Assembly: GCF_006345805.1 (NCBI RefSeq)
Contig: NC_043014.1
Coordinates: forward strand, 8,680,001-8,744,000
DNA: 64,000 bases
From: Octopus sinensis
Lineage: Eukaryota
Direction: 5' to 3'
Part shown: positions 10,701 through 63,506 of the stretch, piece by piece
Position numbering within the stretch: position 1 is the stretch's first letter
Layout: each line of letters opens with the position of its first letter
Translations under genes and position numbers: made by a program
The notes under the pieces: model-generated
Databases searched by the model: none
What the model was told of the DNA's origin: nothing
Seen by the model: the letters and a program-made list of their open reading frames with translations, nothing else

Positions 10701-10971
10701 AATATATATACTGTTGTGTCTGGGGAGAGTCATTTTCTTTTTGTGCCTTAAACACGAAGACTGCTGTAGGAACAACAAGCAGGTGTATTAGTTTGACACT
10801 CGCGAAAAATGGAAAAGTTTTTTACGTTTCAAACCTACGCTCTTCGACAGAAAGGGATAAGAGGAAATAAACAGAGAGAGAGAGAATGAAAAGGAAAACG
10901 TCATAAACAAGAACGCGAGGACGTGGTACATGTGAAGTATTAGCCGACGCTCAGGGAAGGAAAGAAAGGTG

Positions 10972-11006
10972 GTTTAACGTTTCGAGCAAAGCTCTTCTTC
11001 AGAAAC
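10972..11006 (-). ncRNA. Minimal type I hammerhead ribozyme motif (family 1, canonical core)
   Basis: guuu CUGAAGA a gagc-uuu-gcuc GAAA cg UU aaac. Stem I guuu/aaac, stem II gagc/gcuc, palindromic ACGU in place of stem III. Confidence 0.75.
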
Positions 11007-11165
11007 AGAGGAAAGTCCAATAAAAAACGTAGACGGGGAAAAATCGCCAACGATTCAGAAATGGTTACATTTCGAATTTCCGTTCTTTCAACATATGACC
11101 TCGTGAGCACCGCCAGCAATTTTTTTTCCTCTGTCTTCCCTTCTCGGGATCTTTCCTTCTCCTTT

Positions 11166-11200
11166 GTTTCCGACGAAGAGCTCCGCTCGAAACGTTAAAC
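11166..11200 (+). ncRNA. Minimal hammerhead motif (family 1, U4C core variant)
   Basis: guuu CCGACGA a gagc-ucc-gcuc GAAA cg UU aaac, inside a ~210-bp dispersed element. Confidence 0.65.
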
Positions 11201-11317
11201 CCTCCTTCTTCCCGTCTTTCCTGAGCGTCCAATAATACTCTATTTGTTCCACGTCCCCGCGTTGCTGTGTTTTTTTTTTGTGTTTTCTTGTTTGGATTAA
11301 CATATATATGTATATAT

Positions 11318-11378
<61 letters not shown>

Positions 11379-11607
11379 ATAAGATCGTTAATTCAAAAAT
11401 AAAATAACGATTTTATCAAGTGGTCAGCATGTAAAAAATACCTTCAAAGGTAATAATTATTGAAATTATAAATGAGGGTATCTACGAGATACCACCATGC
11501 TGAAAATAGCAGCCATGATCTGACTCCCAAAACCACCTAAATTGTCCATATATTAACACGGAGAGAAAACAAAGAAACAAGATGAAACTAGTAAAAAATT
11601 ACTGGAT

Positions 11608-11633
<26 letters not shown>

Positions 11634-11640
<7 letters not shown>

Positions 11641-12262
11641 GTATAAAAGCCATCTCAATATGGCTAACCACAAAGGGGGGTGTTACTGTAGCTTTTAGCC
11701 CCAGGAGATCATTGTCTCCAGCTGGTTTTAGACACACTTTCTGTGCCCTTATGGTATTTGCAAAGGGAGGCCATCTCTTTCTCGTAAGCCTGAGTGATAC
11801 GCACCGGACCGCGGTTTCGAGATTATTGTCTCTTATCAGATGGCTTTTATACTTTACATTGTCGAGCGATTACTGTTTACATCTCGTTCTGAGATTTAAT
11901 AATGCTTGCAGTCAGTTTTTCGAAATCAGTGGCAGAAGTCACTAGGAAAACTCTTATATATTTGCAAACAGGCCTTGTCTTTCATCGTGATCTAGTGATT
12001 ACCGCCCGTTGATAAGAGACATTAATCTCGAAACCACGGTCCGGTGCGTATCACTCAGGCTTACGAGAAAGAGATGGCCTCCCTTTGCAAATACCTTAAG
12101 GGCACAGAAAGTGTGTCTAAAGCCAGCTGGAGACGATGATCTCCTGGGGCTAAAAAGCTACAGTAACACCTCCCTTTGTGGTTAGCCATATTGAGATGGC
12201 TTTTATACTTTACATTGTCGAGCGATAACTGTTTACATCTCGTTCTGAGATTTAATAATGCT
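11634..12262 (+). mobile_element. Penelope-like non-autonomous element: inverted partial copy, 356-bp monomer, partial direct repeat
   Basis: 11634-11838 is the reverse complement of 12010-12215. 11839-11907 repeats directly at 12195-12262. Flanked by (TA)n. Confidence 0.75.
12003..12048 (+). ncRNA. Type I hammerhead motif with U3-A8 compensatory core (family 3)
   Basis: cgcccg UUGAUAA gaga-cauuaa-ucuc GAAA ccacgg UC cggugcg. The inverted partial copy at 11800-11838 has the perfect palindrome ACCGCGGU. Confidence 0.72.
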
Positions 12263-12650
12263 ATATATATATACACAAAACTGCACACACACACACGCAC
12301 ATACATTATAGATTTTTATATTAATGTTACAATTGATGTGTAGATGAGGGTGTGTGCTATTTAGCAGATGAAATGTGTCACAAACATATTTTAACTAACC
12401 TAAACCTTGTTTATGCCTCAGTGGTGGCATGAATCGTAATAGGTCATTGCACCAGCGAACTTTATATCATAAATCTGTTCCTTTAAACACAGTTTATTCA
12501 GCCAATGAAAATCTTCGAATTTCTTTGTTCGCTTTTTACTTTTTTCTTTTTTATTTTGTAATCTTTCCTTTGCTTTATGGTTTCTTAAAACAACAATGAA
12601 AGATTTCATTAGAAAATAGTCTGTGTTCGCCTGTCTATAGTGAATGTGTG

Positions 12651-12687
<37 letters not shown>

Positions 12688-27873: not shown

Positions 27874-29041
27874 GACATTATACCCTTGTTACTGGTGTGC
27901 TCCATATCAGATTTGTAATGAAAGCCATTCTAAACATCCTATTTTTCTCTCTCAGACAGTGTGTCTAGAATGACATTATGCAATGCTCCTGCTTTTGTTT
28001 TCATATGGGCTAATTTGGCTGCTATTTCTAGTGGCGTGTGGCTTATTGGTTAATGTATTCAGTTAATGATCGTAAGGTCGTCCTGGTGACGCATTGTGTC
28101 CTTGAACAAGGGACACTTTATTTCACATTTGCCCCAATCCCCTCAGCTGGCAAATATAAGTAGTACCTGTATTTCAAAGGGCCAGCCTTGTCACACCCCT
28201 CAGAACTACGTTAAGGGTATGTGTGTCTGTAGACACACATACCCTTATGTGTGTCCACATTATGGCGGCGAGCTGGCTGAAACGTTAGCACGCCGGGCGA
28301 AATGCTTAGCGGTATTTCGTCAGCCTTAACGTTCTGAGTTCAAATTCTGCCAAGGTCGACTTTGCCTTTTATCCTTTTGGAGTCGATTAAATAAGTACCT
28401 GTTACGCACTGGGGTCGATATAATCAACTTAATTCATTTGTCTGTCCTTGTTCGTCCCGTCTGTGTTTAGCCCCTTGTGTGTAGTAAAGAAATAGGTATG
28501 TGTGTCTTTGGAGTACTCAGCCACTTGCACCCTAACTTCATGAGCAAGCTGTTCCATTGACTGGAACATGATCGTAACCCTAAGTGTGCCAGTTCTAGGG
28601 GGACAAGCAAACCCAGAATTTTCTCAATGGCTTGAGCCAAAAGGACTTGCTGTAGACTGCACATACAAAGGTTCAGTACAGTCATTTCCAGGACCTTCTT
28701 AAGGCCCTGGCATACGGGGCAGTTGCCCAGGAGCCCTATGGATTGTGGAGATGAGGAGGGGGGGTGCAATCATTAAATAATGAATGCTGTGGTGGAGTAT
28801 AAAGGGGCCACAGTGCATTGCTTTTCCTGTAATGCTGGCCCTTATCATATCTGGGGCCATAGATTTAGGTTACCTTACTCTGTCAATGAACCAGTAAAAA
28901 CAACAACTTAATAATAACAATGATAATAATAATAATAATAATAACAACGTTGACCTTTCTGTATTTAAGAGATGAGGAATTATGTACATTATTTACATTA
29001 TTTACATTTGATGGATATTTGTCCTCGTCTTGTTTGTTGTT

Positions 29042-29087
29042 AACACAACGTTTCAGCTGATATACCCTCCAGCATTCATCAGGTGTC
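29042..29087 (-). ncRNA. Minimal type I hammerhead motif
   Basis: gacac CUGAUGA au gcugg-aggguaua-ucagc u GAAA cg UU guguu. Confidence 0.68.
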
Positions 29088-32000
29088 TTGGGGAAATTTC
29101 GAACCTAGTTTTAGATGTAGGACCCTTAAGCCAATTTACATTTGTATCCTGCTGTGACCCTTATGTTGTATCATAGCAATTTGTAGAGATACCCGTAGTT
29201 TTATACATGCCCATCATCTTCATAATAATTATCCTCCTTCCCATCATCACCACCACCACCACCACCACCACCATCACCATCATCATCATCATCATCATCA
29301 TCATGGTGGTGGTGGTGGTGATGGTGGTGTTATGGTGTACACAGTGAGTTTAAAGGGAGGTAGGTTTAAAAATTTGTCATGTAATTTTTCACTGGATCGG
29401 CTTCCATCCATTTGCAGTCTTTGGGAATCTTGTGGAGAAAGGAATGAGCATCATACAGTATCAGGCCAGGCCATTCAGTTTCTTCTCTCTAGCATTTACC
29501 AGTAAGAAATCCTCATCATCCTGATCACTATTATTGCTATTATAGATTATTATTGTTGAGTGAGAGAGCAGTTCATGCCATCAAAGTGACACTGGGGTAA
29601 AATATACGAAGCCCAATATACCCATCATGACTACCTGTCAGATAATGGTACACCAGGCACATGCATCACAACCATGTGTGCGACATGGTGATCTCATGTC
29701 AAGATAAACAGCACATGACCTTGCGGGTGGGGCCCAGTTAGAATTTTCTTCTGGTCAAGTAGACCATCCCGCTCAAAAGGTCCCTGAATAAGGATTAAGG
29801 ATGTTAACGAAACACCCATGTCTCCAGAGGTGAATTATTCAAACCCCAAAGAATCCCTCTCAACACATGGCTATGATGCTCCCCCACTTGATTTGCTTGA
29901 ACAAAACAGACCCAGGGTTGAACAACAATAGCTTATGTGTTTACAGTGACAAGGTTGCAAAGTCATAAACCAAACCTGCCTTGCAGCAAGGGAATGAAAT
30001 CAGCCTGGACACCTCTTCTATGGCAGGGCCACAAATTTAGTACAGCACTGACCCCCAACACATAACTGGTTTTATTTATAATTTTTGGTGACATGATTGA
30101 AGGCAGTGGGCTGGCAGAGTTGTTAGCATGCTGGGCAAAATACTCAGCAGTATTTCATCTGCCTCTACGTTCTGAGTTCAAATTTCGCCGAGGTCGACTT
30201 TGCCTTTCATCCTTTCGGGGTCGATTAAATAAGTATCAGTTACACACTGGGGTCGATGTAATCGACTTAATCCGTTTGTCTGTCCTTGTTTGTCCTCTCT
30301 GTGTTTAGCCCCTTGTGGGTAATAAAGAAATAGATATTTTTCCTGTCACTACGTTCTTAGTTCAAATGTCGCCGAGGTCAGCTTTGCCTTTCATCCTTTC
30401 AGTGTTGATAAATTAAGTACCAGTTGAGTACTAAGGTTGATGTGATCGACTCTACCTCTCTCACAAATTCTAGGTCTTGTGCCTATTGTAGAAAAGATTT
30501 TTGGTGAGATGATGCATCAATTCTTTTACTGGAAGGAATTAGATGTTGTGACGTATATTCCATTTCCTGGGTCAAAATAGTACAAATGGCACAAAAATGA
30601 AGTAATTCTAACTGAGAGGGGAAAATTAGGACATGGCCCTTTGTCTGTCCAATCATGCAGGTTTTCAGACTATTACTGAGCATCTGTTACCTATGTTCTG
30701 AGTAACATAAAGCTTTTCCGTCACAAGTTCCAAATTGATATCATCATCATCATCATCATCGTTTAATGTCCACTTTCCATGCTAGCATGGGTTGGATGGT
30801 TTGACTGAGGGCTGGCAACCAGATGGCTGCATCAGGCTCCAGTCTTGATCTGGCAGAGTTTCTACAACTGGATGCCCTTCCTAACACTAACCACTCCGAG
30901 AGTGTAGTGGATGCTTTTATGTGCCACCAGCACGGGGGCCAGTCAGGCGGTACTGGCAACGACCTCACTCGAATCTTTTCACACATGCCAATGGCACAGG
31001 TGCCAGTAAGGTGATGCTGGTAACGATCCCGCTCAAATGATGCTTCTTACATGCCACCGACATGGAAGCCAGTTAGCCGTTCTGGCAATGATCATGCTCG
31101 GATGGTGCTCTTAGCATCCTGAAAAAATTTTTTAAAATTGGGAATGAGTATCACATATGTACACCAGGAAAATATGTCCAGTTTGGCATAGGTGACCTAA
31201 GGACAGGCAAAGAATTAAGTCTGTATCATAATGGTCCATCACAACAAAGAATTACAACGGCAAGAATGCAACAATGATTCACTCAAGAGATTCTTCGGGT
31301 TTTTGAATGTTGCAAGTAACAAAAGAAATAAACAAAATTGAAAAATGCCAAAACAAGAAAAAAAAAAGAATAGAAAGAAATAAAATAAATAAATAATTGA
31401 TCCCAAATTAGGTTTGTTCCCCCATCTTCTTTTATTTAATTAATGATTTGGTGTAATTAATTGTTATTGTTAACGTTCACCAAATTCTTGAGATAACACT
31501 GTTGTTTGTTTGTTTGATTCAAATTGTTGATTAAGACTTAAATCAGTTCAGATCAAGTTGACTTATGCAGAGCAGATGTCACCCTCATTGGGTGTTTAAG
31601 AGCAGGTCACTGATTAATTGACTGACTGACTAATTGACTAAGCATCCTGAACACAGAGAAAAGGCAAGGAAATGTTGGGGGTGGGGGTTTAGTTTGGTCT
31701 GAACTTGATGACATTCAATCACTATTTCTTGTAGTAGCAAACACTGCACAATAAAAACATATGATCCCATTGAAGAATAAGTTACAGCTAAGGGGATTTT
31801 TAAAGGGAATTCTTACATTACATACAAACACACACTTATATATATATACATACATGCGTACCGGTGGCACGTAAAAAGCACCATCCGATTGTGACCCTTT
31901 GCCAGCCTCGTCTGGCACCTGTGCTGGTGGCACGTAAAAAGCACCCACTACACTCACGGAGTGGTTGGCGTTAGGAAGGGCATCCAGCTGTAGAAACACT

Positions 32001-37343: not shown

Positions 37344-37376
<33 letters not shown>

Positions 37377-39272: not shown

Positions 39273-39329
39273 TAGCCACTGATGAAAACTTTGCCTAGCT
39301 AATTAGAGTTTGAAACCTAGGTATTGCTG
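39273..39329 (+). ncRNA. Type I hammerhead motif
   Basis: uagcca CUGAUGA aaacu...aguuu GAAA ccuagg UA uugcug, with palindrome ACCUAGGU. Confidence 0.72.
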
Positions 39330-39995
39330 TAAAAAACAAGGTAAAACTTTTTATTCTTCATTCCCTTCGAAATTGCTCTTAAATGTGGTTTTGGACATTT
39401 TCACTGCTCCTTCTAGCGTGTAAGACTGCCTGTTAAGGGTCGCTTCCTTTGTGTTTAAATGTACACTAATTTTTATATATATATATATGGTATCACATAA
39501 AAAGCACCCAAACCACTCTGAGGTGGTTGGTATCAGGAAAGGCATCCAGCTGTGAAAAGAACCATGCCAAAACAGTGAAGCATCTTGCAGTTCTCAAGCT
39601 TATCAGCTCCTGTAAAACTATCCAATCCAGGCCAGCGTGGAAGACAGATGTTAAATGATGGTGATGATGAGGATGATGATAAGATAGAGAGATATTCGTC
39701 CAAAGTAGTGGACTGGTTGTATAAAAGGAGCGTTGCATGGGATGTCTTGCAGCTGTAGGTTCCAGATCTTTGCACCGTGATAGAAACCCCCGTCGTATTA
39801 CTGATACCAAAGCTGTACTGCACAGACTTTTACCTTGGACATCGTTGGTTGTGTGGATTGAGGAATCTTGTGTGCATGAAGAACTGCAAGTCAACAACAA
39901 CAACAACAACAACAAAAAGCACCACACACACTAACCCAGAGTCATGTGTTAGAGATGAACTTTCCAAGTAAAGAAACTCACCATAAGCCAGGGGC

Positions 39996-43056: not shown

Positions 43057-45627
43057 TCAAAGAAACGAGGCTTGACCAATTATATTCTTCAGTTCATTGG
43101 CAACTCTAAATACCTCTTTGACTCGATTGACCATGTCCTGCACTGCCGGCACAGATGGATAATATATTGCAGCTGTTTTAGTAGCTGCGACTGTTGATTT
43201 GAGATTGTTGCACAGTAGCGTTGTGCAGTGCATGATGCGATTGCGGAAGTCGGTGTCCATTAAATTCCGATGAAGCGTGTCGCCGATGTACACCATTTTC
43301 GTGGCGGACAACACAACAAATTTGCTGTTGGAAATAAACACTTTTGGAGTTTGGATGCTGTCGATGCAGTTGTAGAAAGCCTCGATGGAGTTGTTGAGTA
43401 ACGTATAGTGCGTGTTCATCTGTTCCGAGTAATAAAGCAAAACTTGCCGGTCGTTGGGGGCCAAGCGCTTCATATAGAAATTGTTCTCGGATACAAGACC
43501 CCCATTTACGTTTGAGTTGTAACCTGAGACATCAGTGTTGCTTGGGGTATTCACTGGTGTCTTTAGCTCCTGGTCAAAATCTATTTCAAGGGACTTCGAT
43601 AACGATACATAATCAAGTCCTCGGCTGATGTCCTGAACCTCTTTTGAATACTCTGTTGAATTAGCCAATGTCAACGATGAATCAACATCTGATCGGTTGT
43701 TGATCTCTTTGGTCCCCGTGGAAAGATTTAAGAGGCTATTTGACCCTAATTGCATAGAGTTGATGGCTGCTTCTAATGAGGATACAGGGTCGTTAAGCTT
43801 ATTTGGTTCAGATTTTTCATTGCCCTTTTGAGATTGTTTTGAAGGGACATCTGTTGAAGGGGTCACTACTTTATCAGGGCTTGGGTCCCGTGTTTCCAGT
43901 TGAACATAATCATATTCCAGAAAGTCTAAGGAGTCTGGGTCCTCCTTCTTGGAGACGTTTATTATCACAGGTGACCTTTTTGAAGGTATCGTATCTGGCT
44001 TGGTCAGCAACGTCAGCTGGGAAGGAGTAGGAGGGAGTGGCCGGTTGACTGGGGGTGGAGGAGGGAGAGGGCGGTTCTGAACACTGCCGCTACTGTGACG
44101 GCGACCATGGATACTCCTTGAGAATGCCTCCATGCTTCCAATACTACCTGACTTGGTCGGCACTGGTACTACTATACTATCAGTTTTGTTGAAATCCGTT
44201 TGAGATCCAGAAATGTCAGAATTCTTGAAGAGAAGCACAGAGTTTCCCTGAATAAACGAGGCAAGGTTGCGGACGTCAATCGTAAGCGTTTTGGAAAGGT
44301 TGGCGATCTTTCCTAAATCGTCGTCCTTAGCACCGTTGCTGCTCACCAGCAGATTTATCTGCCACTGGATTGCAGAAAGATTCCTGATGCTAAGCAAAAT
44401 CTGTTGTAAGGCCTGCTGAAGAGGCGTCAGCAACTTGTACAGTTTATTCACAAGTTTACGGTCACATTTGCTGACAGAATTTGCTAGAGTACCCTCAGCA
44501 AATTCTACAAAGTCAGCCAAAGACATCTGCATGTTATCGGCAGCTGCTCTAATGTCATGGAGATTTGGTTCCAAATTATTTCTCTGGCGCCAAGAACTAC
44601 TGATAAAGGGCGACATTTTGTTGATGGCTCTCAGGACATCTTGCTGTCTCTTGACCAGCAGATCCATAGCCACATCTTGTGCGAGTGGAAGTTCATTGTA
44701 AATGGGGATGTCGGAGCCCCGTGACCCCGTGCTACAGGAAGAGAGTCGGCCGGCATCTTGACCATCTGAAGAATCGGATTTGGCAGAAATCAAAGAGTCA
44801 CGAGTCACTTGTGGAGGAATATCATAAACAGAAGATGCAGCTGTAATTATTGGCTTGTTATGAGGTGACGCAGCATTTGTCTTTTTACCAACAGGTGGTG
44901 TTGCAGTTGTCGCACCTGGAATTTTCTTTGGCTCATTGTTTGAACCTGCATTTTTAGGTGTGTCATAGAGTTCTCCAAGATCCTGTTCAAATGCGAGGGA
45001 TGGCATATCAAAGTTGTTGGACGGTGGTTCAACAGGGGGCAGATCGTAATCTTCAAATGCTGACTTGGGGACATCATAGTCATCCATGATTGCTGAATTG
45101 GAAGGTGATGGCGATGTCTTTGTATGCGAGGGTGGAGTATCATACAAGTCTAGAACTGAGTCAAACTGTTGCTTTAAGTTATGAGGAAGATGGTCAGGTG
45201 GAACGTCGTAAACAGCAGAAGCGTCCAGACTGGACCGAGCAGAATCGCAGAGGCTGGATGTGTTTGATGATCGTGGAAGACTCTGGTTAGATGCACTGCT
45301 GGATAAAGTCATAGTGGACTCGGTTGATTTGAAAGATGCCATGCTTGATCGGTTAGATGGCGGCACATCATAGGTGTCACAGTCGTTTGAAAGGAAACTT
45401 TTAAAAGAACTGTCTGCCGGTAGAGACGTTGAAGGATAATTGCAGATAGACTGATCTGGTGACTGGTCGAACCTTCTCTCTTTTGGAGTGTCATAGTTGG
45501 CTTGCAGATCAGAGTTGGAATCTGATTTGCCAATCGACTGTGGTGGAGGTACATCATAATCTTCCGGAGTGTGCCGAGCAGGTGGGTGGTCATATGTTGG
45601 GCCTCCAGGGTCAGCTTGTTGACCAAC
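43057..45627 (-). CDS. BCAR1: Cas-family adaptor (BCAR1/p130Cas-like), terminal coding exon: YDxP substrate domain, serine-rich helical bundle, Src-binding region, C-terminal FAT-like domain
   Basis: 856-codon open frame after a TTTTCCAG|GTT acceptor. Ten YDxP motifs, two RPLPP motifs, EYDYVQL (human YDYVHL) and C-terminal KFVVLSATKMVYIGDTL typical of Cas proteins. TGA stop at 43057-43059. Phase is compatible with direct splicing to the SH3 exon. Confidence 0.93.
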   Translation of the reverse strand, partial: VGQQADPGGPTYDHPPARHTPEDYDVPPPQSIGKSDSNSDLQANYDTPKERRFDQSPDQSICNYPSTSLPADSSFKSFLSNDCDTYDVPPSNRSSMASFKSTESTMTLSSSASNQSLPRSSNTSSLCDSARSSLDASAVYDVPPDHLPHNLKQQFDSVLDLYDTPPSHTKTSPSPSNSAIMDDYDVPKSAFEDYDLPPVEPPSNNFDMPSLAFEQDLGELYDTPKNAGSNNEPKKIPGATTATPPVGKKTNAASPHNKPIITAASSVYDIPPQVTRDSLISAKSDSSDGQDAGRLSSCSTGSRGSDIPIYNELPLAQDVAMDLLVKRQQDVLRAINKMSPFISSSWRQRNNLEPNLHDIRAAADNMQMSLADFVEFAEGTLANSVSKCDRKLVNKLYKLLTPLQQALQQILLSIRNLSAIQWQINLLVSSNGAKDDDLGKIANLSKTLTIDVRNLASFIQGNSVLLFKNSDISGSQTDFNKTDSIVVPVPTKSGSIGSMEAFSRSIHGRRHSSGSVQNRPLPPPPPVNRPLPPTPSQLTLLTKPDTIPSKRSPVIINVSKKEDPDSLDFLEYDYVQLETRDPSPDKVVTPSTDVPSKQSQKGNEKSEPNKLNDPVSSLEAAINSMQLGSNSLLNLSTGTKEINNRSDVDSSLTLANSTEYSKEVQDISRGLDYVSLSKSLEIDFDQELKTPVNTPSNTDVSGYNSNVNGGLVSENNFYMKRLAPNDRQVLLYYSEQMNTHYTLLNNSIEAFYNCIDSIQTPKVFISNSKFVVLSATKMVYIGDTLHRNLMDTDFRNRIMHCTTLLCNNLKSTVAATKTAAIYYPSVPAVQDMVNRVKEVFRVANELKNIIGQASFL

Positions 45628-46524
45628 CTGGAAAATAAAAAAAAAATAAAAAGAATTATTAAATTTTTCTGAATGGTTATAAAATAACAAGCAATAAAAT
45701 AATTTTAAAATCTGTTTTAAAGTTTGGAAACTGTACTGAGGGCCTTAAAGGGGAAAAACTCCCTTTAGTCATGAATGAACATGGGATTGCGCCTAGAAAG
45801 TTACCCTTTGAGGCATAAGTAGGGGCAAGGTTGTTTATGGAAGACAGCAAACGCCTGCCCATGCATACCAGCCCCTCCTCTCCACACCACTGATGTTATC
45901 CAAGGGAAAAGCAAAGGCTGGTACAGCTTGGCACCAGTGATGTTGCAACTCATTTCTACAGATGAGCAAACTGGAGCAACATGAAATAAAGTGTCTTGCT
46001 CAAGAACACAACACAGCCCAGCCTTGGAATCAAACTCACTATCTATTGATTGTGAGCCCAATGATCTAACCATGGAGCCATATGCCTGGGCCTTAATTAC
46101 ATGTCAACTGTGTGTGTGTGTGTGTCTGTGTGTAAATACAAAATGGGACAACAACACATCCAGATAGGCAATACAATGAAAACAAGGATGGGTCATTTGG
46201 AGTTTTCTTTCCTCAGTCAAGTACCACATTATCTTCGCAATTTCAGGTGATTATACTTGAGATTGCTCTAATCTGGCTAGCCCCAAAGAAAAACTAAGCT
46301 AAGAGCATTAGATTCCTTGGGAGAAAGCAGCGAATGTATACGAAAACAAGGACGGAAAAAGGGACGATGTTACACAAATACAATAAAAACAATAACAGGA
46401 CATATATATATATATATACATTTATATATATATAGGAGAGTTTACGAAAAAAACAAAAGACGAAGACAGGTGGTGTACAAAACAAACAGATGTATTAGTA
46501 TAACGCTCAGGAATAGAAAAAAGT

Positions 46525-46560
46525 CTTTTACGTTTCGAGCCTACGCTCTTCTACAGAAAG
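46525..46560 (-). ncRNA. Hammerhead-like motif (family 2, CUGUAGA core)
   Basis: cuuu CUGUAGA a gagc-guag-gcuc GAAA cg UA aaag. Related copies at 10819-10854, 23185-23220 and 55784-55819. Confidence 0.55.
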
Positions 46561-47329
46561 GGACACAGAAAAAATAAGGAGAGAAAAAAAATGTGTGTAG
46601 TGGCTAATGATCTATCATGGCAACTGACTTGGACAAGACCAGAGACCTTGAAAACTGTAGTTAATCTTTTTTTAATATCTAACAATGCCAAGCAAAGATA
46701 GGACATCTTTAGCACCCAACAAATCCACCTCTACTGAGATGATGTAAGAGACAACTCACCAGCCTATGGAGAAAAAGAGGGCTTTAGAAAGGGCAATAGG
46801 AAATGAGAGGGAGAGAGAGAGGGGCGGTAAGATAACAAGCCATAGATAGGCAAGCACACATACACACACACAGCAACTTGATGAATAAGAAGTAAAACAG
46901 TGGTAGGACTAATGAGACCAAGCACAGTAGAATGACTTAACACCATCATCGCTGAAGCAGAAGACAAAAAGGAAGTGGAAAAAATAGGAAAAGAGGATCA
47001 AATTCCCCAAAGCTTACTCATGACGGTGGGGGGCAGGGTGGTGGTGGAAACAAACCAGCACAGAAATATAATAATAATAATAATGGTGTCAAATTTTGCC
47101 ACAGGGGCAGCTATTTTGGGAGAAAGGGATGTGTCAATTACATTTACCCCAGTACGCAACTGGTACTTAATTTATCGACTCCGAAAGGATGAAAGGCAAA
47201 GTCGACCTTGGCAGAATTTGAACTCGGAATGTAGTGCCAGATGAAATACTACTAAGCATTTCACCCAGCGTGCTAATGATTCTGCCAGCACACCGCCTTA
47301 ATAATAATAATGTTAATAATAATGGTGTT

Positions 47330-47910
47330 AAATTTTGCCACAAGGGCAGCTATTTTGGGGGAAGGGGATATGTCGATTGCACTGACCCCTGTGTTCAACT
47401 GGTACTTAATTCATTGGCCCCCGAAAGGATGAAAGACAAAGTCGACCTCGGCAGAATTTGAACTCAGAACGTAGTGGCAGAAGAAATACTTATTTTTTTA
47501 CTACCCACAAGGGGCTAAACACAGAGGGGACAAACAAGGACAGGCAAATGGATTAAGTCTATTACATCGATCCAAGTGCGTAACTGGTACTTAATTTATT
47601 GGCCCCCGAAAGGATGAAAGGTAAAGTCGACCTCGGCAGAATTTGAACTCAGAACGTAGCGGCAGAAGAAATACTTATTTTTTTACTACCCACAAGGGGC
47701 TAAACACAGAGGGGACAAACAAGGACAGGCAAATGGATTAAGTCTATTACATCGATCCAAGTGCGTAACTGGTACTTAATTTATTGACCCCCCGAAAGGA
47801 TGAAAGGTAAAGTCGACCTCGGCAGAATTTGAACTCAGAATGTAGCGGCAGACGAAATACGGCTACGCATTTCGCCCGGCGTGCTAACGCTTCTGCCAGC
47901 TCGCCGCCTT
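47330..47910 (-). mobile_element. SINE family C, head plus tandem internal units
   Basis: Head GGCGGCGAGCTGGCAGAA near 47908, followed by repeated core-tail units. Confidence 0.75.
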
Positions 47911-49743: not shown

Positions 49744-50553
49744 CTATTTCTTTACTACCCACAAGGGGCTAAACACAGAGGGGACAAACAAGGACAGACA
49801 AACGGATTAAGTCGATTATATCGACCCCAGTGTGTAACTGGTACTTATTTAATTGACACCAGTGCATAACTGGTACTTATTTATCGACCCTGAAAGGCAA
49901 AGTCGACCTCGGCGGATTTTGAACTCAGAACGTAGTGCCAGGAGAAATACCTATTTCTTTACTACCCACAAGGGGCTAAACACAGAGGGTACAAACAAGG
50001 ACAGACAAACGGGTTAAGTCGATTACATCGACCCCAGTGCGTAACTGGTACTTAATTTATCGACCCTGAAAGGATGAAAGCCAAAGTCGACCTCGGCGGA
50101 TTTTGAACTCAGAACGTAACAGCAGACGAAATACCTATTTCTTTACTACCCACAAGGGGCTAAACACAAAGGGGACAAATAAGGACAAGCAAATGGATTA
50201 AGTCGATTATATCGACCCCAGTGCGTAACTGGTACTTATTCAATCGACCCTGAAAGGATGAAAGGCTAAGTCGACTTTGGCTGAATTTGAACTCAGAACG
50301 TAACGGCAGACGAAATACCTATTTCTTTACTACCCATAAGGGGCTAAACACAGAGGGGACAAACAAGAACAGATAAAGGGATTAAGTCGATTATATCGAC
50401 CCCAGTGCCTAACTGGTACTTATTTAATCGACCCCCAAAAGGATGAAAGGCAAAGTCGATCTTGGCAGAATTTGAACTCAGAATGTAGCGGCAGACGAAA
50501 TACCACTAAGTACGTCGTCCGGCGTGCTAACGATTCTGCCAGCTTGCCGCCTT
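49744..50553 (-). mobile_element. SINE family C, one head plus four tandem core-tail units
   Basis: CTATTTCTTTACTACCC recurs at about 49744, 49951, 50135 and 50319. Single head at about 50550. Confidence 0.8.
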
Positions 50554-51897: not shown

Positions 51898-51973
51898 GTA
51901 CTAGTTGTAGTTGTAGTAGTTGTGGTGATCATAAGGGTAGTGGTGGTGGTAGTGGCGGTAATAGTGTTGGTTA

Positions 51974-52007
<34 letters not shown>

Positions 52008-53070
52008 GGAAGTGGTGGTGGTGGTAGTATTAGTAGTGGTGGTGGTAGTAATAGTGTTGGTTATAGTAGTAGTAGTGGTGGTGGTGGTAGTAGTAGTGGA
52101 AGTGGTGGTGGTGGTGGTAGTAGTAGTGGAGGTGGTAGTAATAGTGTTGGTTATAGTAGTAGTAGTGGTGGTAGTAGTGGAAGTGGTGGTAGTAGTAGTA
52201 GTGGAGGTGGTAGTAATAGTGTTGGTTATAGTAGTAGTAGTGGTGGTGGTAGTAGTGGAAGTGGTGGTGGTGGTAGTAGTAGTAGTGGAGGTGGTAGTAA
52301 TAGTGTTGGTTATAGTAGTAGTAGTGGTGGTGGTAGTAGTGGAAGTGGTGGTAGTAGTAGTAGTGGAAGTGGTGGTAGTAATAGTGGTGGTTATAGTAGT
52401 AGTAGTGGTGGTGGTAGTAGTGGAAGTGGTGGTGGTAGTAGTGGAAGTGATGGTGGTGGTAGTAGTAGTGGTGGGGGTTGTAGTGGTGGTGGTAGTGGCG
52501 GTAATAGTGGTGGTTATAGTAGTAGTAGTGGTGGTGGTAGTAGTGGAAGTGGTGGTGGTAGTAATAGTGGTGGTTATAGTAGTAGTAGTGGTGGTGGTAG
52601 TAGTGGAAGTGGTGGTGGTAGTAGTGGAAGTGATGGTGGTGGTAGTAGTAGTGGTGGGGGTTGTAGTGGTGGTGGTAGTGGCGGTAATAGTGGTGGTGGT
52701 AGTAGTAGTAGTGGTGGTGGTAGTAATAGTGTTGGTTATAGTAGTAGTAGTGGTGGTAGTAGTAGTGGAAGTGGTGGTGGTGGTAGTAGTAGTAGTGGTG
52801 GTAGTAATAGTGTTGGTTATAGTAGTAGTAGTGGTGGTGGTGGTAGTAGTAGTGGAAGTGGTGGTGGTGGTAGTAGTAGTAGTGGAAGTGGTGGTAGTAA
52901 TAGTGGTGGTTATAGTAGTAGTAGTGGTGGTGGTGGTAGTAGTGGAAGTGGTGGTGGTAGTAGTGGAAGTGATGGTGGTGGTAGTAGTAGTGGTGGTAGT
53001 AGTAATAGTGGTGGTTATAGTAGTAGTGGTTGTAGTGGTGGTGGATATAGTAGTAGTAGTGGTAGTAGTA
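51898..53070. repeat. Compound (GTA/GTG)n trinucleotide repeat with higher-order units
   Basis: Recurrent GTAATAGTGTTGGTTATAGTAGTAGTAGTGG and GTGGAAGTGG punctuation. Confidence 0.9.
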
Positions 53071-54375
53071 GCCTTGTTCTGTCCATCCCTTTCACACTTA
53101 TCTCTCAAACCAAGCATAGGATAGAGGGGGCAGCAGGGAGGAGGGGAGGACAGAGATGAGACAGACGGGGGGGGGTAGTAGGGGGTGAGGATGGAGGATG
53201 AGGAAGCTGACAAAGGAAGCTGTGTGTTGGTGGGTGGGGGGGGGCAGGGAAGGAGAGTAAAGTAGGTGGGTAGATTGTGGGGTGGCTGACTGCATATAGG
53301 AAGTGGCAGTGTGTGGCGGTGAGGGGGGAACAAACGGCACCCCTTCCTCATATCCCCCACCCAGCAGCCCTTGAAAACAGAGGGGAGAGGTTGGAGATAG
53401 TGACAAACAGTGGGGGTCACACACACATAGGGACAAGGGGGTAAGAGTGGGAGTGGTGGTGCTTTGTCAACCAAGGGGCAGAAAATAGCTTGTCTGTGAA
53501 GTGATATGGGGTGGGGGGAAGGATTTCACACTTCTGTAGGAGTGATAAGGGGGTGCGGTCACAGAAACTGAGGCGGTGGTGTTGGTGGGTGGTAGCATTG
53601 GTGCTGAGGGTGATGGTATTGGTGGTTGTGATGGTGATGGTGATGGTGGTGTTGGTAGTTGTGGTGGTGTTAGTGATGGTGGTGTTGGTGGTTGTGGTGG
53701 TGGTGTTGGTAGTGTTGGTGGTGACTGTGGTGATGGTGTTGAAGCTGATGGTGATGGTGCTAGCGGTGGTGTTGATGGCAGTAGTAGGGGTGATAGTGTT
53801 GGTATTGGTGGTAGTAAGAGCAGTGGTGGTGGTGCAATAATATTTGCAGTTCCACCCCCTTGCATTACTAAAACAACAACTGGAAAACAACCCCAGCCTT
53901 CTTATCTCTTCTACTTCCTCTACCCATCATGCAATGCTGCTCAGTCTTGCATGACAACAAGGAGTTAGAACTGTGTCAAAAATAAACCTAAATCTGTCCC
54001 AGACAGTAATTCTCACTCATGGCTCAGTGGTTAGAGCGTTGGGCTTACAATTATGATGGTGAGTTTAATTCCCAGACTGGGCTATGTGAGGGGGTGTCAC
54101 ACACAGGGGCAAGGGGATAAGACACTTTATTTTAGGTTACTCCACTTCACTCAGCTGTAGGAATGAGTCGCGATGTCACTGGTGCCAGGCTGTATCGGGG
54201 GGGGGCCCTTTCCCTTGGATAACATTGGTGGCATGGAGAGGGAAAACTGATATGCATGGCTGACTGCTGGTCTTCCATGAACAACCTTGCTCAGAATGTG
54301 CCTTGGGAGGCAGGGAACTTTCTATGTGCAATCCCATGCTCATTCATAACCGAAGGGGGGTCTTTACCTTTTACC

Positions 54376-55712: not shown

Positions 55713-56774
55713 TATATGAGTCACCATGATAGATCGTTAGCCACTTCACACATTTTTTTTCTCTCCTTGTTTTTTCTGTGTCCCTTTCTGTAGAAGAGCG
55801 TAGGCTCAAAACGTAAAGGATTTTTTCTATTCCTGAGCATTATACTAATACATCTGTTTGTTTTGTACACCACCTGTCTTTGTACTTTGTTTTTTTTTTC
55901 GAAAACTCTCCCTATATATATACATATATGGCGGTGCCCCAGCATGGCCACAGCTCATGAGCTGAAACTAGAATCAATCAATCAATCAATCATACATATA
56001 TATATATACATATATTGGTATGGGTGTGACTCTGTAGTAAGGGGCTTGCTTCCTAACCACATGGCACCTTGGTCAAGTGTCTTCTGCTATTGCCACAGGC
56101 TGACCAAAGTCTTGTGAGTGGATTGGGTAGAAAGGAAACTGAAAGAAGCCTGTCATATACATATATATATGTATCTGTATATGTGTGTCCTTGTGTCTGT
56201 ATTTGTCCCCTACATCACTGCTTGATAACCAGTGTTGGTGTGTTTCCGTCTCTGTAACTTAGAGGTTTGGTTAAAGACACTGATAGAATAACTTCTAGTC
56301 TTACAAAGAATAAGTCCTGAGATCGATTAGTTTGAGTAAAACCTATTTCTTTACTACCCACAAGGGGCTAAACATAGAGGGGAAAAACAAGGACAGATAA
56401 AGGTATTAAGTCGATTACATCGACCCCAGTGTGTAACTGGTACTTAATTTATCGACCCCAAAAGGATGAAAGGCAGAGTCGACCTCGGCGGAATTTGAAC
56501 TCAGAAAGTAGCGCCAGACGAAATACTGCTAAGCATTTCGCCCGGCGTGCTAACGTTTCTGCCAACTCGACGCCATGTGGTTGGGAAGCAAGCCCCCTTA
56601 CCACAGAGTCACACCCGTGCCAATATATATATATATATATATATATCATACATACATACAACACTACATACATATATATATAAAGTTAATCCAAACATGA
56701 AAGCACAAAAAAACACAAAACAACACGAGGACGTGGAACAAATAGTATTATTGGACGCTCAGGAAAGAAGGAGG

Positions 56775-56809
56775 GTTTAACGTTTCGAGCGGAGCTCTTC
56801 GTCGGAAAC
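56775..56809 (-). ncRNA. Minimal hammerhead motif (family 1, U4C variant), intronic and sense to the Cas gene
   Basis: Same motif as 11166-11200, in element 56683-56880. Confidence 0.62.
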
Positions 56810-57923
56810 ATGGGAGAAGGAAAGATCCAGAGAAGGGAAGACGGAGGAAAAAATCGCCAACGGTACACACGAGGTCACATTTTGATATGTATTTTCTTTG
56901 ACTGAAACATTTTACGGCAGTGCTCCAGCATGACCCCAGTCAAATGACTGAAACAAGTACAAAGACAAAAGAATAAGATTTCATACGACATAGATGAATC
57001 ATTTGATTGTATAATTAAGGGTAGATCCAACTACCCCCAACCAAAAGACAGATTTCATATGACCCTGATGAACCATCAGCCGATAGAATTAAGGGCTGGT
57101 CCAACCACCCCCAACCAAACACATTTCATTGATTGCAAATGCGTGGAAGACCAGTCAAATGGTCGGAGGGGTAAGGAGACTAGGGCTCTGTGTGGGTGCT
57201 GACTTGATCAGCAGAAAAGCCCTGGGACAGGGGACGTAGAATTATCAATCATTTGTAGCTCACTACTCTGTTACATCGAAAGGGACCCCCATAAAAGGAC
57301 ACAATATAAGAACATACATGAATAAGGGGTCTTCTTTTTTTTTATTTTTACACATCACTTCTTTACCTCTCCCTCCCCCTCATTTATTGTTTGAAGCTAA
57401 TCTAGGTGGTGGTAGTGGTTATTGCTGTGGTGGTGGTAGTGGTTCTGGTGATGGTGAGTGTGGCAGGGGTAGTGTTGGTGATAGTTGTCATGAAGGTGGT
57501 GGCAATGCTGAAGGAGGCGGTGATTGTAGTGATGGTGGTGAGGTTGTGGTGGTGGTGGTGGTGGTGATGATGGCCCTTTCATTTTTGCGGTTGGTTATTG
57601 CTAAAAATAGCATCCTTAATTTTTTTTCCCCTTCTGGTGGGGTTAGTAGGTCAACAGTGGTGGGGGTGTGGGGGGGCGGAGGGAATATGACTGATGTGTC
57701 TCATGGCAGTTGTCCCCTGTCGGTTATATCAGTCTGTCTGGGATTTCCCAGGGTTTTGCAAGAACAGGGGACTAAAAATAAAATGTTCACTAGACCCCAA
57801 TTAATTGATATATTAACACACTGTCTTTGTGTTTATGAGAGAGAGAGAGGGGGAGAAAGAAGGATGGAGAGGAGAGAGAGAAAGAGTGAGTGTGTATGTG
57901 AGGGGGAGGAGAGAGTGAGAGTT

Positions 57924-57957
<34 letters not shown>

Positions 57958-58030
57958 TGTGTGAGGGAGAGTGTATGAGTGTGGAAAGAGAGTGATGTGT
58001 GAATGGGGGGAGAGAGTGCATTTGTGCAAT

Positions 58031-58585
58031 ACCTATTTTTTTATTGCCCACAAGGGGCTAAACACAGAAGGGACAAAACAAGTCCAGACAAACGGATTAA
58101 ATCGATTACATCGACTCCAGTGCGTAACCGGTACTTAATTTATCGACCCCGAAACGATGAAAGGCAAAGTCGACCTCGGCGGAATTTGAACTCAGAACTT
58201 AACGGCAGACGAAATACCTATTTCTTTACTACCCACAGAGTAGTAAAGAGAGGACAAACAAGGACAGACACACGGATAAAGTTGATTATATCGACCCCAG
58301 TGCATAACTGGTACTTATTCAATCGACCCCGAAAGGATGAAAGGCAAAGTCGACCTCGGCGGATTTTGAACTCAGAACATAGTGCCAGGCAAAATACCTA
58401 TTTCTTTACTACCCACAAGGGGCTAAATATAGAATGGACAAACAGATTAAATCGATTACATCGACTCCAGTGCGTCACTGGTACTTAATTTATCGACCCC
58501 CGAAAGGATGAAAGGTAAAGTCGACCTTGGCGGAATTTGAACTCAGAACGTAGCAGCGTCCAGCGTGCTAACGATTCTGCCAGAT
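58031..58585 (-). mobile_element. SINE family C, three tandem units
   Basis: Same unit as 49744-50553. Confidence 0.72.
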
Positions 58586-59852: not shown

Positions 59853-60143
59853 CTTATTTGGTGTCACATCCCAGCTCCGTCGATGCCAGTTACTAGCGAG
59901 CGAAGAATTCATGTCAAAGCTGCTGGAATCCTTATTTGGCGTGGAGGCGAGGTTGGACATGCCAGTAAGAATTTTAAGGCGGTTTCCTGGGGCAATACCA
60001 GTCTTTCCTCGGAATGTGCACCGCCACCATCCCAGCATGCCATCCGTGTCTTGTTCAAGAACTGCGAGGACATCTCCACGCCGAAATGCAAGTTCGTTAG
60101 CGGACTCTGCTAGATTGTCATATATGGCTTTGGCAAGGGTAGT
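59853..60143 (-). CDS. BCAR1: Cas-family adaptor (BCAR1/p130Cas-like), SH3-domain coding exon (97 codons, phase 0-0)
   Basis: Translation TTLAKAIYDNLAESANELAFRRGDVLAVLEQDTDGMLGWWRCTFRGKTGIAPGNRLKIL closely resembles the p130Cas SH3 domain. Polypyrimidine tract plus TTTTGCAG acceptor just before 60143. AAG|GTATGT donor after 59853. Confidence 0.93.
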
Positions 60144-60258
60144 CTGCAAAAGAAAAAGAAGAAAGAAAAATTACATTATATATATAGATAGGTGTGTGTG
60201 TGTTCATGTGTGGATGTGTGTGTGTGTATTTATATACATATATATATATATATATATA

Positions 60259-60551
60259 TCACCGTCACTGTCACCGACCAGGCTATCAGATGTTGCTACA
60301 CATCGCTGGTCACAATGTGCTTCGCATTGTTTTAGCCTTCAAATGATGCCACCCCGCTGGCTAAGCGAGCAGGCCAACAGAAGAAAGAGTTAGAGAAAGT
60401 TGTGGCGAAGGAGTACAGCAGGGATCGCCACCACCCGATGCCAGAGCCTCATGGAGCTTTTAGGTGTTTTCACTCAATAAACACTCACAACGCCCGGTCT
60501 GGGAATCGAAACCGCGAGTCCGCTGCACTAACCACTGGGCCATTGCACCTC

Positions 60552-60553
<2 letters not shown>
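60259..60553 (-). mobile_element. tRNA-derived SINE family B
   Basis: Reverse-complement copy of the 26086-26380 type. Confidence 0.75.
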
Positions 60554-60595
<42 letters not shown>

Positions 60596-60794
60596 CACAT
60601 ACAATATATATATATATACATATACACACACATACAAATATCAGCAAAATTTAGAGAGAGTAAATTTACAATACTATCATGTTCTTAAGAACGAAATCAA
60701 CCTCACTGTCTGTATATCTACCCTCTTTATAATGTTGGCAAATGAAATAGAGATAAGAATGTGCATTGTCCGTTTGATTGGAAAATTTCGATAA

Positions 60795-60880
60795 GTGGCT
60801 GAAGATTGCTCAACATTTTAAAACTGATGTAATACTTACAGTGTTTAATAAAATGAAGTAGCATGAAACAACTGTACCAC
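60795..60880 (+). ncRNA. Type I hammerhead motif with extended stem II (family 5, diverged)
   Basis: gugg CUGAAGA uugcu...agcau GAAA caacug UA ccac. Stems covary relative to 18516-18601. Confidence 0.7.
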
Positions 60881-61144
60881 GCTACTTTGGATATACTTGT
60901 TGCTTATTTTGATTATATATATATATCATAATAATAATAATAACATGAGGGAATATTATTCCAAACTTACAGGGAAAAATTCAATTTAGAAATACTAAAT
61001 CAAATTTCACAAAAATATAATATTATATATACAAAGAGCAATAAAGATTCAAGTTAATTTAAATGAATTTACTTGAATATGGTACCTAACTTAGATGCAC
61101 CAAAAAAAACTATACTGATTTAACAATACAGTAATGTGGGTGAT

Positions 61145-63506
61145 TATAAGAGAAAGAAGCAACAAGAATGGATAGGTTTTTAGTACGATCGTTTCATACA
61201 AGGACAGGTTTTTATTAAAAGGTTCAAAGATTACAGCATATAAACGAGTCCCGTACTCATCAGCTAAAATACATGTGAGTTCTCTAGACATCCTAGTGTT
61301 TGAGGCTATACTCATGAAGTAATGTAGATAATAAGTAACATAAACAGATTTCTAAAGTTCATAAAGTTCATTAAAGATGATGTACAGTCTTATCACAGAA
61401 TTTTAAAAAAGTTTTGATAGCATCACAGATTTCCATAGATATGATGGGGATTATATACTCACAGAAGACAAATTTATCCATTGTTAATTACAACGAGGTG
61501 GGTCTCATTCCTGCTTATTAGCATTACAGAGAGGGTGAATTAATCCTTTGTATGATGCACAAATTCCAATGGTGTAGATGTAATTTCCAGAGAAATGGAG
61601 ATGAATTTCATATTCACAGGCGATAAATTTTTCAATGGTTGAACACAATGAGGTAGGTATCAATCCTTGTTAATGATTAGGTATTTGCCACATTAATCAC
61701 ATTACTGCTATTCACAAGAGGCTGTAGCTATTTAACTCTTAAAGGCTGAAGGGCTTTCTAGAGCGGCCAAGAATAGAGAAGGGAATGGAAGAAAGAGAGA
61801 AAATATGGAGGAGGGAGCAAAAAGGGGGGGGAAGGGGACTAAAAGAGAAGAGAAAAGGAAACAAGAATAAGAAGAAGAAAAGAAAAAAGAGAAAAGAGAA
61901 AGAAATAGGGAGAGAAGGGAAAAAAAGAAAAAGAAAAAAGAGGGTTCTAGTTATACAGAAGAGTTAGTAGACTGCAAGTTGGTTTTAATCAACAGGCATC
62001 TAGGAACTAGAGGAGAATATTATTCTTTGACCAGTAAACCGTTAATTTTGGCTGTTGTGAATCAGCTATGATTTTAAAGAGAATCTAAAGAGATAACACT
62101 CAGGGGTTAGTGGGTCAGATGCTAAAATCACACCAGAAAATACATTAGGAAAACTAAGTATAATCTTATCAAAAGTCATTAAAATTTACTTATTTAATTT
62201 ATTCATTTTATTGTCTTAGGAGTTGTCGTTATTATTCATACATTGACTGACTACAGGTCAAATCTTATATAAATATGATTATCTTCATTATGATAGACAA
62301 TCCCCTAACACCTTGTAAATTGATCTTATAAGATTTGACCTGTAGTCAGTCAATGTATGAATAATAACGACAACTCCTTAAGACAATAAAATGAATAAAT
62401 TAAATAAGTAATTTTTAATGACTTTTTGATAAGATTATACTTAGATTTTCCTAATGTTCTTTCTGGTGTTTTAGCATCTGACCCCTTAACCCCTGACTGT
62501 GTTATCTCTTTAGATTCTCTTTAAACTCATAGCGATTTCAACAGCAATAAATAACGGTTTACTGGTCAAAGAATAATATTCTCCTCTAGTTCCTAGATGC
62601 CTGTTGATTAAAACCAGACTTGCAGTCTACTAACTCTTCTGTAGAACTAGAACCTCTTTTTTTTCTTTGTCTTTTTTTTTTTCCCTTCTCTCCCTATTTC
62701 TTTTTCTCTTTCTCTTTTTTCTTTTTTCTTTTTCTTCTTCTTATTCTCTGTTTCCTTTCTCTTCTCTTTTAGTCCCCCCTTCCCCCCCCCCTTTTTGCTC
62801 CCTCCTCCATTATTTTCTCTCTCTTTTCTTCTATTCCCTCTCTATTCTTGGCCGCTCTAGAAAGCCCTTCAGCCTTTAAGAGTTAAATAGCTACAGCCTC
62901 TTGTGAATAGCAGTAATGTGATTAATGTGGCAAATACCTAATCATATAACAAGGATTGATACTACCTCATTGTGTTCAACCATTGAAAAATTTATCGCCT
63001 GTGAATATGAAATTCATCTCCATTTCTCTGGAAATTTACATCTACACCATTGGGAATTTGTGCATCTATACAAAGGATTAATTCACCCTCTCTGTAATCT
63101 AATAAGCAGGAAATGAGACCCACCTCGTTGTAATTAACAATGGATAATTTGTCTTCTGTGAGTATATAATCCCTCATCATATCTATGGAATGCATATGGA
63201 TTAGGTCACCTTCTCTGTGATGCTATCAAAACTTTTTTAAAATTCTGTGATAGACTGTACATCATCTTTAATGAACTTTAATGAACTTTAGAAATCTGTT
63301 TATGTTACTTATTTATCTACATTACTTCATGAGTATAGCCTCACCTAGGATGTCAATAGGAAACTAGAGCACTCACTGTATTTTAGCTGATGAGTACGGG
63401 ACTCGTTATATGCTGTAATCTTTGCAACTTTTAATAAAAAACCTGTCCTGTATTAAACGATCGTACTAAAAACCTATCCATTCTTGTTGCTTCTTTCTCG
63501 CTTATA
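61145..63506. repeat. ~2.36-kb inverted repeat (arms 61145-62269 and 62327-63506, 57-bp spacer)
   Basis: Arms are reverse complements throughout, for example GGTCAAATCTTATA / TATAAGATTTGACC at the centre, with scattered indels. Confidence 0.92.
61178..61269 (-). ncRNA. Type I hammerhead motif with extended stem II at the outer end of the 2.4-kb palindrome
   Basis: uuuuag CUGAUGA guac...guau GAAA cgaucg UA cuaaaa. The mirror copy at 63381-63471 (+) reads UAAA instead of GAAA. Confidence 0.78.

Follow-up and report, generated by a model that had tools for sequence, protein, structure and literature searches.

The stretch analyzed here (the window) comprises 64,000 nucleotides of Octopus sinensis DNA (contig NC_043014.1, positions 8,680,001 to 8,744,000, forward strand), and it is populated by repeats that carry minimal hammerhead ribozyme motifs, as known from the pseudo-long terminal repeats (pseudo-LTRs) of metazoan Penelope-like elements (PLEs; Cervera and De la Pena, 2014, PMC4209133; our comparisons with published systems refer throughout to the available portions of the papers cited). 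A first-pass annotation had listed about 40 such motifs from several families, mostly in (TA)n tracts, and a hammerhead-like layout was indeed present at all 24 single sites that it named (13 on the minus and 11 on the plus strand), as well as in a 73-bp array. However, 17 of the 41 sites belong to that one array, and the 41 sites amount to about 20 insertion events, several of them inverted or tandem pairs. Hence, a count of 40 overstates the signal, because 17 of the motifs come from one local array and the window itself is a hot spot. Sorted into families A to G, the copies are the following (positions within the window; UTR, untranslated region):

10750–11075, minus strand: A2 copy followed by an A3 copy, motifs at 10976–11002 (perfect core) and 10823–10850 (A6U core)
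11080–11302, plus strand: short A1 3' end with (TA)n at its terminus, motif at 11170–11196 (U4C core, palindrome ACGU); the A2 copy lies head-to-head with it
11634–12263, plus strand: B1 insertion between TA runs, with a full 356-nt non-coding unit (motif 12009–12041, U3-A8 core), an inverted truncated copy at 11634–11838 (minus strand, motif cut at the core), a partial tandem and a 47-nt tail
13930–14132, plus strand: A1 copy, motif at 14004–14030 (U4C)
14979–15446, plus strand: about 1.5 copies of the 305-nt non-coding E unit, perfect-core motifs at 15031–15065 and 15336–15370
16390–16600, minus strand: truncated B3 copy, motif at 16503–16547, perfect core with a C.A mismatch at 10.1-11.1
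16610–16960, minus strand: degenerate motif near 16756 of an unassigned family, with one relative in locus L183
17004–18339, minus strand: one A1 element in which an internal 73-bp segment is repeated about 17-fold; the repeats have U4C and G10.1-U11.1
18420–18730, plus strand: C1 3' end, motif at 18520–18597 (perfect core), about 71% like the C2 end
23088–23285, minus strand: A3 copy, A6U core, broken palindrome
24178–24500, both orientations: D head-to-head inverted pair, motifs at 24232–24307 (minus) and 24364–24436 (plus), both perfect, from the 3' end of a Hydra-type PLE
28962–29111, minus strand: truncated F copy, U.U at 10.1-11.1
36840–37886, minus strand: B2 unit twice, U4C core, C.A at 10.1-11.1, inside a 512-bp tandem duplication
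39215–39475, plus strand: G copy from an older family whose non-coding unit measures about 444 nt; here stem I has a mismatch
46420–46625, minus strand: A3 copy, motif at 46529–46556 (A6U)
55724–55922, plus strand: A3 copy, G12 altered
56686–56877, minus strand: A1 copy, motif at 56779–56805 (U4C)
60694–60917, plus strand: degenerate C1-like copy
61015–63506, both orientations: C2 head-to-head inverted insertion, two 1.2–1.3-kb 3' UTR pieces of a Hydra-type PLE (61015–62269, minus, motif 61184–61263 perfect; 62272–63506, plus, G12 altered)

The motifs were scored with a descriptor comprising the stem I 5' strand, CUGANGA (or a U3-A8 core), stem II, GAAA, a palindrome, UH and stem I'. With a strictly Watson-Crick palindrome it matched the window 23 times, compared with 0.23 times (at most 2) in 100 local dinucleotide shuffles; permitting G-U pairs gave 25 matches against 0.43 (at most 2, 30 shuffles), and permitting one mismatch gave 26, 13 of which lie within the 73-bp array. 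The motif density is thus above the dinucleotide-shuffled control. The descriptor is satisfied with at most one core change by 25 of the 41 sites and with none by seven; these seven (10976, 15031, 15336, 18520, 24232, 24364 and 61184) show a perfect core and all stems, a combination that shuffles did not produce (n = 30). Sites failing the descriptor are decayed copies. Among the damaged motifs, 11800 is broken at the core by an inversion junction, 16756 has G in the cleavage-site position, the palindrome is gone at 23185 and 60795, G12 is altered at 55784 and 63381, GAAA is short of one A at 37686, and a core-adjacent mismatch is present at 16503, 29042, 37174 and 39273.

Given that 34 of the 41 copies depart from a perfect core or stems, and that Rfam is blind to the motifs (no hammerhead family among 150 of the 225 matches listed for the window, and no hammerhead reaching the gathering score at eight family loci), they might be regarded as chance matches in repetitive AT-rich DNA. 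This idea is refuted by the shuffles, by compensatory changes and by reversed controls, and we give it practically no credence: across the 2.72-Gb genome the exact family-A pattern occurs 28,355 times and the exact family-F pattern 1,977 times, while each reversed control occurs 0 times. The compensatory changes were followed in 11 hand-picked B-family motifs (10 distinct), in which 88.7% of the cells pair and both partners vary in 7 of 15 pairs, among them C3-G8/U3-A8 and two pairs of the palindrome; the covariation score was 0.458, compared with 0.225 after shuffling and at most 0.176 with slid partners. Moreover, there are several families, each with its own palindromic stem III, as had been proposed, the words found across families being ACGU, ACCGCGGU, ACUGCAGU, ACUCGAGU, ACGAUCGU, ACAUAUGU, AAUCGAUU and ACCUAGGU. 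Families A and F have one unpaired base between A9 and 10.1, and B, C, D, E and G do not. Collectively, the sequence supports the identification of these motifs as minimal type I hammerheads of the PLE kind, in several families. Beyond the families of the window, further minimal-hammerhead families were seen at loci L087, L091, L075, L199, L043 and L281, with the palindromes ACAAUUGU, ACAUGU, ACGUACGU, ACUGCAGU, ACUGGU and ACGCGU.

The first-pass annotation interpreted the repeats as a diverse set of non-coding retroelements, and it is here that our results diverge from it. This description fits B, E and G (8 sites), but not A, C2, D and F, which hold 30 of the 41 sites and whose longer copies elsewhere in the genome continue upstream into PLE GIY-YIG sequence, and for A and C2 also into reverse transcriptase (RT) sequence. 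Coding partners sharing the termini, which that annotation had recommended seeking, were found: the A3 and C2 ends are contiguous with both RT and endonuclease frames, and the D and F ends with endonuclease frames. Read from sequence, the window copies of A, C2, D and F are 5'-truncated 3' ends of PLEs. We are therefore highly confident that most motifs of the window lie in 3' terminal repeats of 5'-truncated copies of PLE families, whose long copies encode RT and/or GIY-YIG, and that a minority belong to short non-coding units, likely copied in trans by the enzymes of such families.

In A3, two loci (L272 and L273) are 95.8% identical over 1,869 nt, a stretch that begins in the endonuclease frame and takes in the motif. 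Pfam recognized RVT_1 in L272 (E = 6.7e-08) and, weakly and under its curated cut-off, GIY-YIG (E = 4.4e-04); of 20 A3 copies picked by position, 4 had an endonuclease frame upstream on the same strand. Translations of L271, L272 and the A1 locus L279 contain a CX2-5CxxC linker ahead of GIY-YIG (CX4CxxC in L272), and the family-A partners would accordingly be of the Neptune clade type, an assignment made from motifs alone. At L279, a related RT and endonuclease region lies 2.7 kb upstream of the A1 motif over CA-rich DNA. The interval between the endonuclease stop and the motif (L279:3543-6260) is filled by about 2.4 kb of degenerate (CA)/(TACA) repeat, of which L278 shares 1.2 kb, the motif-adjacent part; an element of the L279 type may itself carry and spread microsatellite-like DNA. 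A2 was grouped with family A by sequence only.

C2 behaves similarly: 6 of 25 loci share sequence nearly to the locus edge, and in L157 two motifs 4,573 nt apart enclose RT and endonuclease pieces, the window copy at 61015–63506 being 94% identical to the L157 3' end. The C2 endonuclease scored 0.95 to GIY-YIG clusters in Atlas, and the L156 and L157 translations contain the RWK, CxCX5C, CxxC and CxH motifs given as Hydra features by Craig et al. (2021, PMC8557442). C2 does not match the Hydra size norm (below 3 kb, single open reading frame), since its motifs are 4,573 nt apart and its frame is in pieces in the copies read; the published length being a tendency, we file C2 as Hydra-type only. 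For family D, 20 loci included 2 independent places with a Hydra-type endonuclease some 300 nt upstream.

Family F revealed an additional feature, a tRNA-like module upstream of the hammerhead in 16 of 30 position-picked copies, in which words resembling an A box and a B box (judged by eye against the consensus) are spaced about 45 nt apart; neither ARAGORN (11 loci) nor Rfam called a tRNA in this head. Many F copies begin at the tRNA-like head, while L317, L330, L333 and L337 run upstream into the coding end, and one of the 30 position-picked copies (L337) reaches a GIY-YIG-like frame with one stop (Atlas 0.95). The latter copy overturned the notion, suggested by a best-hit sample, that F is a discrete non-coding element. 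An inverted partner accompanies 15 of the 30. Possibly, as a side case, F may have spawned a Pol III-driven, hammerhead-bearing SINE from a PLE 3' UTR. As partners of the window families we also considered 30 GIY-YIG loci (the first listed) and 15 longer stretches of PLE sequence. These were rejected: where they matched window families, the match was a separate insertion nearby, and the PLEs themselves terminate in motifs other than those of the window families.

B, E and G present a different picture. Each is a self-contained non-coding unit of 305–444 nt with one type I hammerhead, and no PLE frame was found in line with the units in samples of 25, 25, 15 and 20 loci; B2 and G each gave one neighbouring PLE-frame match on the opposite strand. 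An E insertion usually spans about 1.5 units and bears two motifs. Given such units, all families might be retrozymes, i.e., non-coding elements spreading via self-cleaved circular RNA. B, E and G are indeed head-to-tail units; at least 32 of 39 other best E loci hold a second partial unit (hand count, with a query that favoured this), and the window E pair consists of two consecutive complete motifs whose double-hammerhead fold lies only 3.3 kcal/mol above the minimum, making it, as modelled, the best candidate for double-hammerhead cleavage in cis. Additionally, in run X5 a single 423-nt contig (depth 1,350) connects position 12170 of a B-type unit with the earlier position 11862; a contig of this length could represent a circle or a perfect tandem of about 390 nt, the RNA status of the run being guessed. 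The four sequencing runs aligned to the B1 unit consist of contigs only and are uninformative on ends or cleavage. Against such an origin, the families with 30 of the 41 sites enter coding sequence in their longer copies, which refutes it for A3, C2, D and F; no array of two full B units occurred among 25 B1 loci, one of which, L121, spans two motif positions; and the core of the main B2 subfamily is damaged. Hence, we consider retrozyme spread of all families very improbable.

Instead, the B insertions resemble those of PLEs, in line with the trans-copying proposed above. B1 copies stop at either of two points 47 nt apart, the outer of which repeats the unit start in the manner of a PLE tail. 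Hand counts over 25 B1 loci (two overlap) gave 16 with an inverted partner, 12 with a partial tandem of at least 25 nt and 11 with a tail; B2 insertions behave like B1, and target duplications of 12–14 bp are present at the B loci L117, L292 and L299. The two B2 units of the window sit in a 512-bp duplication (99.4% identity within 36840–37886) that takes in about 150 bp of flank beyond B2 and may be an assembly or haplotype artefact.

Several observations weigh against the derivation of the motifs from PLE ends. The analysis yielded no partner enzyme for B, E or G, and no coding partner for A2, for C1 (2 sites) or for the 16756 motif, the last two being unassigned. The only locus that ties A1 to an RT-endonuclease frame is L279, where about 2.4 kb of CA-rich DNA intervenes, and A1 5' ends cluster 72–88 nt before the core in all 22 scored best hits (22 of 29 fetched). 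Pfam gave no match to the C2 endonuclease or RT piece, nor to the F endonuclease piece. The covariation test, which the first-pass annotation had asked for and which was positive, rests on 11 related sequences chosen by hand and on a structure named by the analyst; since related sequences can beat shuffled and slid controls, more weight falls on the retention of the core by unrelated families whose paired stems differ.

The insertion pattern recalls target-primed reverse transcription as described for PLEs. A PLE protein was reported to nick AT-rich DNA and to begin reverse transcription at two internal sites, which leaves a tail; the hammerhead of that PLE cleaves only with protein, and cleavage mutants insert in vitro regardless, so that cleavage is dispensable there (PMC11167929). 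Similarly, in the present families the endonuclease would nick AT-rich or (TA)n DNA, and reverse transcription would begin at one of two fixed sites, 40–110 nt or more beyond the hammerhead. Copies made in this way would have a fixed 3' end, with or without a tail, would be truncated to varying extents at the 5' end and would include head-to-head inversions. We observe a fixed 3' end with variable 5' truncation in C2 and A3, and inverted pairs in the window at 11634–12263, 24178–24500 and 61015–63506. The B, E and G units would borrow the PLE enzyme. Single minimal motifs were found uncleaved and dimers weakly cleaved (PMC4209133), and the role of PLE-hammerhead cleavage in transposition has been called unclear (PMC8557442). 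As a palindromic stem III allows cleavage mainly as a dimer, solo copies would presumably be silent; cleavage is probably unnecessary for the insertion of a copy, and the window copies may represent dead-on-arrival products of target-primed reverse transcription.

The association with (TA)n tracts largely holds: a run of at least four TA lies within 200 nt downstream of 17 of 25 cleavage sites, compared with 27% of random positions, and by eye 14 of 24 element 3' ends adjoin a TA run. Intact young PLEs in this genome likewise end in a motif, about 65 nt and (TA)n. Two of the young elements (L085:674-4374 and L083:2745-5818) are intact and Neptune-like, with copies 98–99% identical, and have an additional upstream open frame overlapping the RT frame (479 codons in L085; Pfam unconvincing). 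The window is a hot spot, several-fold richer in motifs than other sampled DNA, with 12 descriptor matches in 64 kb outside the array; 18 other contigs, sampled at 20 places for a total of 200 kb, gave 6, and the flanks gave 2 in 160 kb. Exact family-A patterns, the array left aside, number 5 in the window, where the genome count predicts 0.67. Genome-wide, candidates for A1, B1, C2, D, G, F, E and B2 number at least 1,071–2,994 each (the sets may overlap), alongside 5,029 GIY-YIG candidates.

Within the PLE-end interpretation, we see an even chance that the short A1 copies form a free, non-autonomous daughter element of about 210 nt, beyond mere truncation products. None of the 22 scored best hits extends more than 120 nt upstream of the core, compared with 5 of 24 position-picked copies of the A1/A2 region; the best hits are 95–97% identical, and L028 has a 3' piece ahead of the unit start. 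On the other hand, long A1 copies exist (L278, L279, L280, L281 and L282), and the 5' pile-up coincides with the word ACATGTG, which might base-pair with a (TA)n target, making this a possible truncation hot spot. The sharp pile-up thus makes a short daughter element about as likely as such a hot spot. The view of A1 as a discrete non-coding element, which the best-hit sample had suggested, is qualified by the position-picked copies, some of which are longer. A1 and A3 differ by a compensatory pair in stem I.

The 73-bp array consists of 16.9 head-to-tail copies, 13 of which pass the descriptor, and is tandem in the sense used by bioRxiv 10.64898/2026.07.22.740005. It could therefore be taken for a retrozyme multimer, with a self-cleaved circle of 73 nt as the template for rolling-circle copying. 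However, the array lies within one A1 element, and its junction is confined to this locus, all 9 genome matches of the junction 30-mer falling inside the array. The unit is bounded by two 18-nt pyrimidine tracts that match at 17 of 18 nt; the units have the U4C core, and their double-hammerhead fold lies 25 kcal/mol above the minimum (ViennaRNA, core contacts ignored). A multimer origin is accordingly very unlikely, and as modelled the array makes a poor candidate for cleavage in cis; most likely, the array grew by local DNA-level duplication in a single A1 copy, through unequal exchange between the two tracts.

Core variants are frequent in the high-copy subfamilies. By hand count, the first 100 family-A matches along the contig labelled C1 comprise 52 with A6U, 28 with U4C, 19 canonical and 1 other, and position 7 of the A6U group may be any of the four bases. 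Most of the 25 best B2 loci have C.A at 10.1-11.1, usually together with U4C, while L307 and L310 retain an intact U3-A8 core; U4C thus recurs in two families, A and B2. In published work, U4C considerably lowered in vitro activity yet supported viroid infectivity, and A6 changes gave low activity (PMC3088659). On these data, U4C and A6U cores are predicted to be slow rather than shown to be dead. We tentatively raise the possibility, which we regard as rather doubtful, that A1 (U4C), A3 (A6U) and B2 (U4C and loss of the 10.1-11.1 pair) multiplied to thousands of copies after their cores had been crippled, with helices and palindrome kept, and that the fold serves a non-cleaving role or slow, protein-assisted cleavage. 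RNA dimerization or recognition by RT may be candidates for such a role. If this is true, natural pairs of intact and crippled subfamilies make the purpose of the PLE hammerhead directly testable; in any case, whether transposition needs cleavage is directly testable by comparing natural high-copy subfamilies that have U4C or A6U with those that lack them.

The literature already describes hammerheads at PLE ends and their very large numbers of solo copies, as well as PLE-derived retrozymes and the targeting of (TA)n by Neptune and Hydra elements. The octopus motifs agree with the survey of Cervera and De la Pena (PMC4209133) in the type I layout with a short helix I, a U-rich 5' flank and a palindromic stem III, in G10.1-C11.1, the U3-A8 variant and, for families A and F, the additional base following A9, and in occurring as thousands of mostly solo copies (put down to truncated PLEs) and as inverted pairs 100–700 bp apart. 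They differ in that B, C, D, E and G have no extra base after A9, that one family reaches 28,355 exact matches, whereas 4,000–9,000 were deemed remarkable in that survey, and that large subfamilies have fixed U4C or A6U, which are not among the variants given in its available parts. With the Neptune and Hydra PLEs (PMC8557442) they share the C-terminal GIY-YIG, the linker in the A3 and A1 partners and the cysteine and RWK motifs in the C2 partner, (TA)n targets, an inverted truncated partner, partial tandems and the tail. However, the C2 element has 4.57 kb between its motifs, while Hydra elements are generally below 3 kb, the A1 partner has a 2.7-kb CA-rich 3' region, and the clades given here were assigned from motifs alone.

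B, E and G share with the animal non-LTR retrozymes (Cervera and de la Pena, 2020, PMC7229834; Li, Clavereau and Pollet, 2026) the non-coding head-to-tail unit of 305–444 nt with one type I hammerhead, and bioRxiv 10.64898/2026.07.22.740005 argues that retrozyme units derive from PLE pseudo-LTRs. Unlike those elements, the copies here mostly comprise 1–1.7 units instead of long arrays, and in B the tail, inversions and target duplications of PLEs are directly visible. Family F shares the tRNA-like A/B-box module upstream of the hammerhead with the Schistosoma hammerhead SINE-like repeats (PMC6765202), but in F the module lies in a PLE 3' UTR right after the endonuclease stop, and F inserts as inverted pairs (15/30) and not as tandem SINE arrays.

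In our literature search we found no description of a tRNA-like module in a PLE end or of fixed U4C or A6U variants in PLE hammerheads, which one directly relevant hammerhead survey could cover, nor of hammerhead-bearing Penelope ends in octopus or another cephalopod, which supplementary tables could list. A repeat annotation of octopus noted recently active Penelope-like families, ribozymes being unmentioned in its main text (PMC13282606), and 235 Rfam hammerheads were counted in the giant squid genome (PMC6962438). Our findings extend the known picture to a genome for which we found no such description, and imply that tens of thousands of its short repeats are Penelope-type ends or non-autonomous relatives missed by Rfam.

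Among the other features of the window, an 895-codon open frame of a host gene (43057–45744, minus strand) matches Pfam CAS_C and Serine_rich (p130Cas/BCAR1-like), and some hammerhead motifs may fall in introns of this gene. A gap of 100 N bases occupies 14360–14459, and a GTA/GTG trinucleotide-type array of 1.16 kb lies at 51907–53071. Finally, a 180–185-bp repeat forms tandem arrays of 2–3 units at 4326–4687, 47397–47860, 49891–50504 and 58028–58549, with a B-box-like word on the minus strand; we take it to resemble a tRNA SINE with a Deu/Nin domain.

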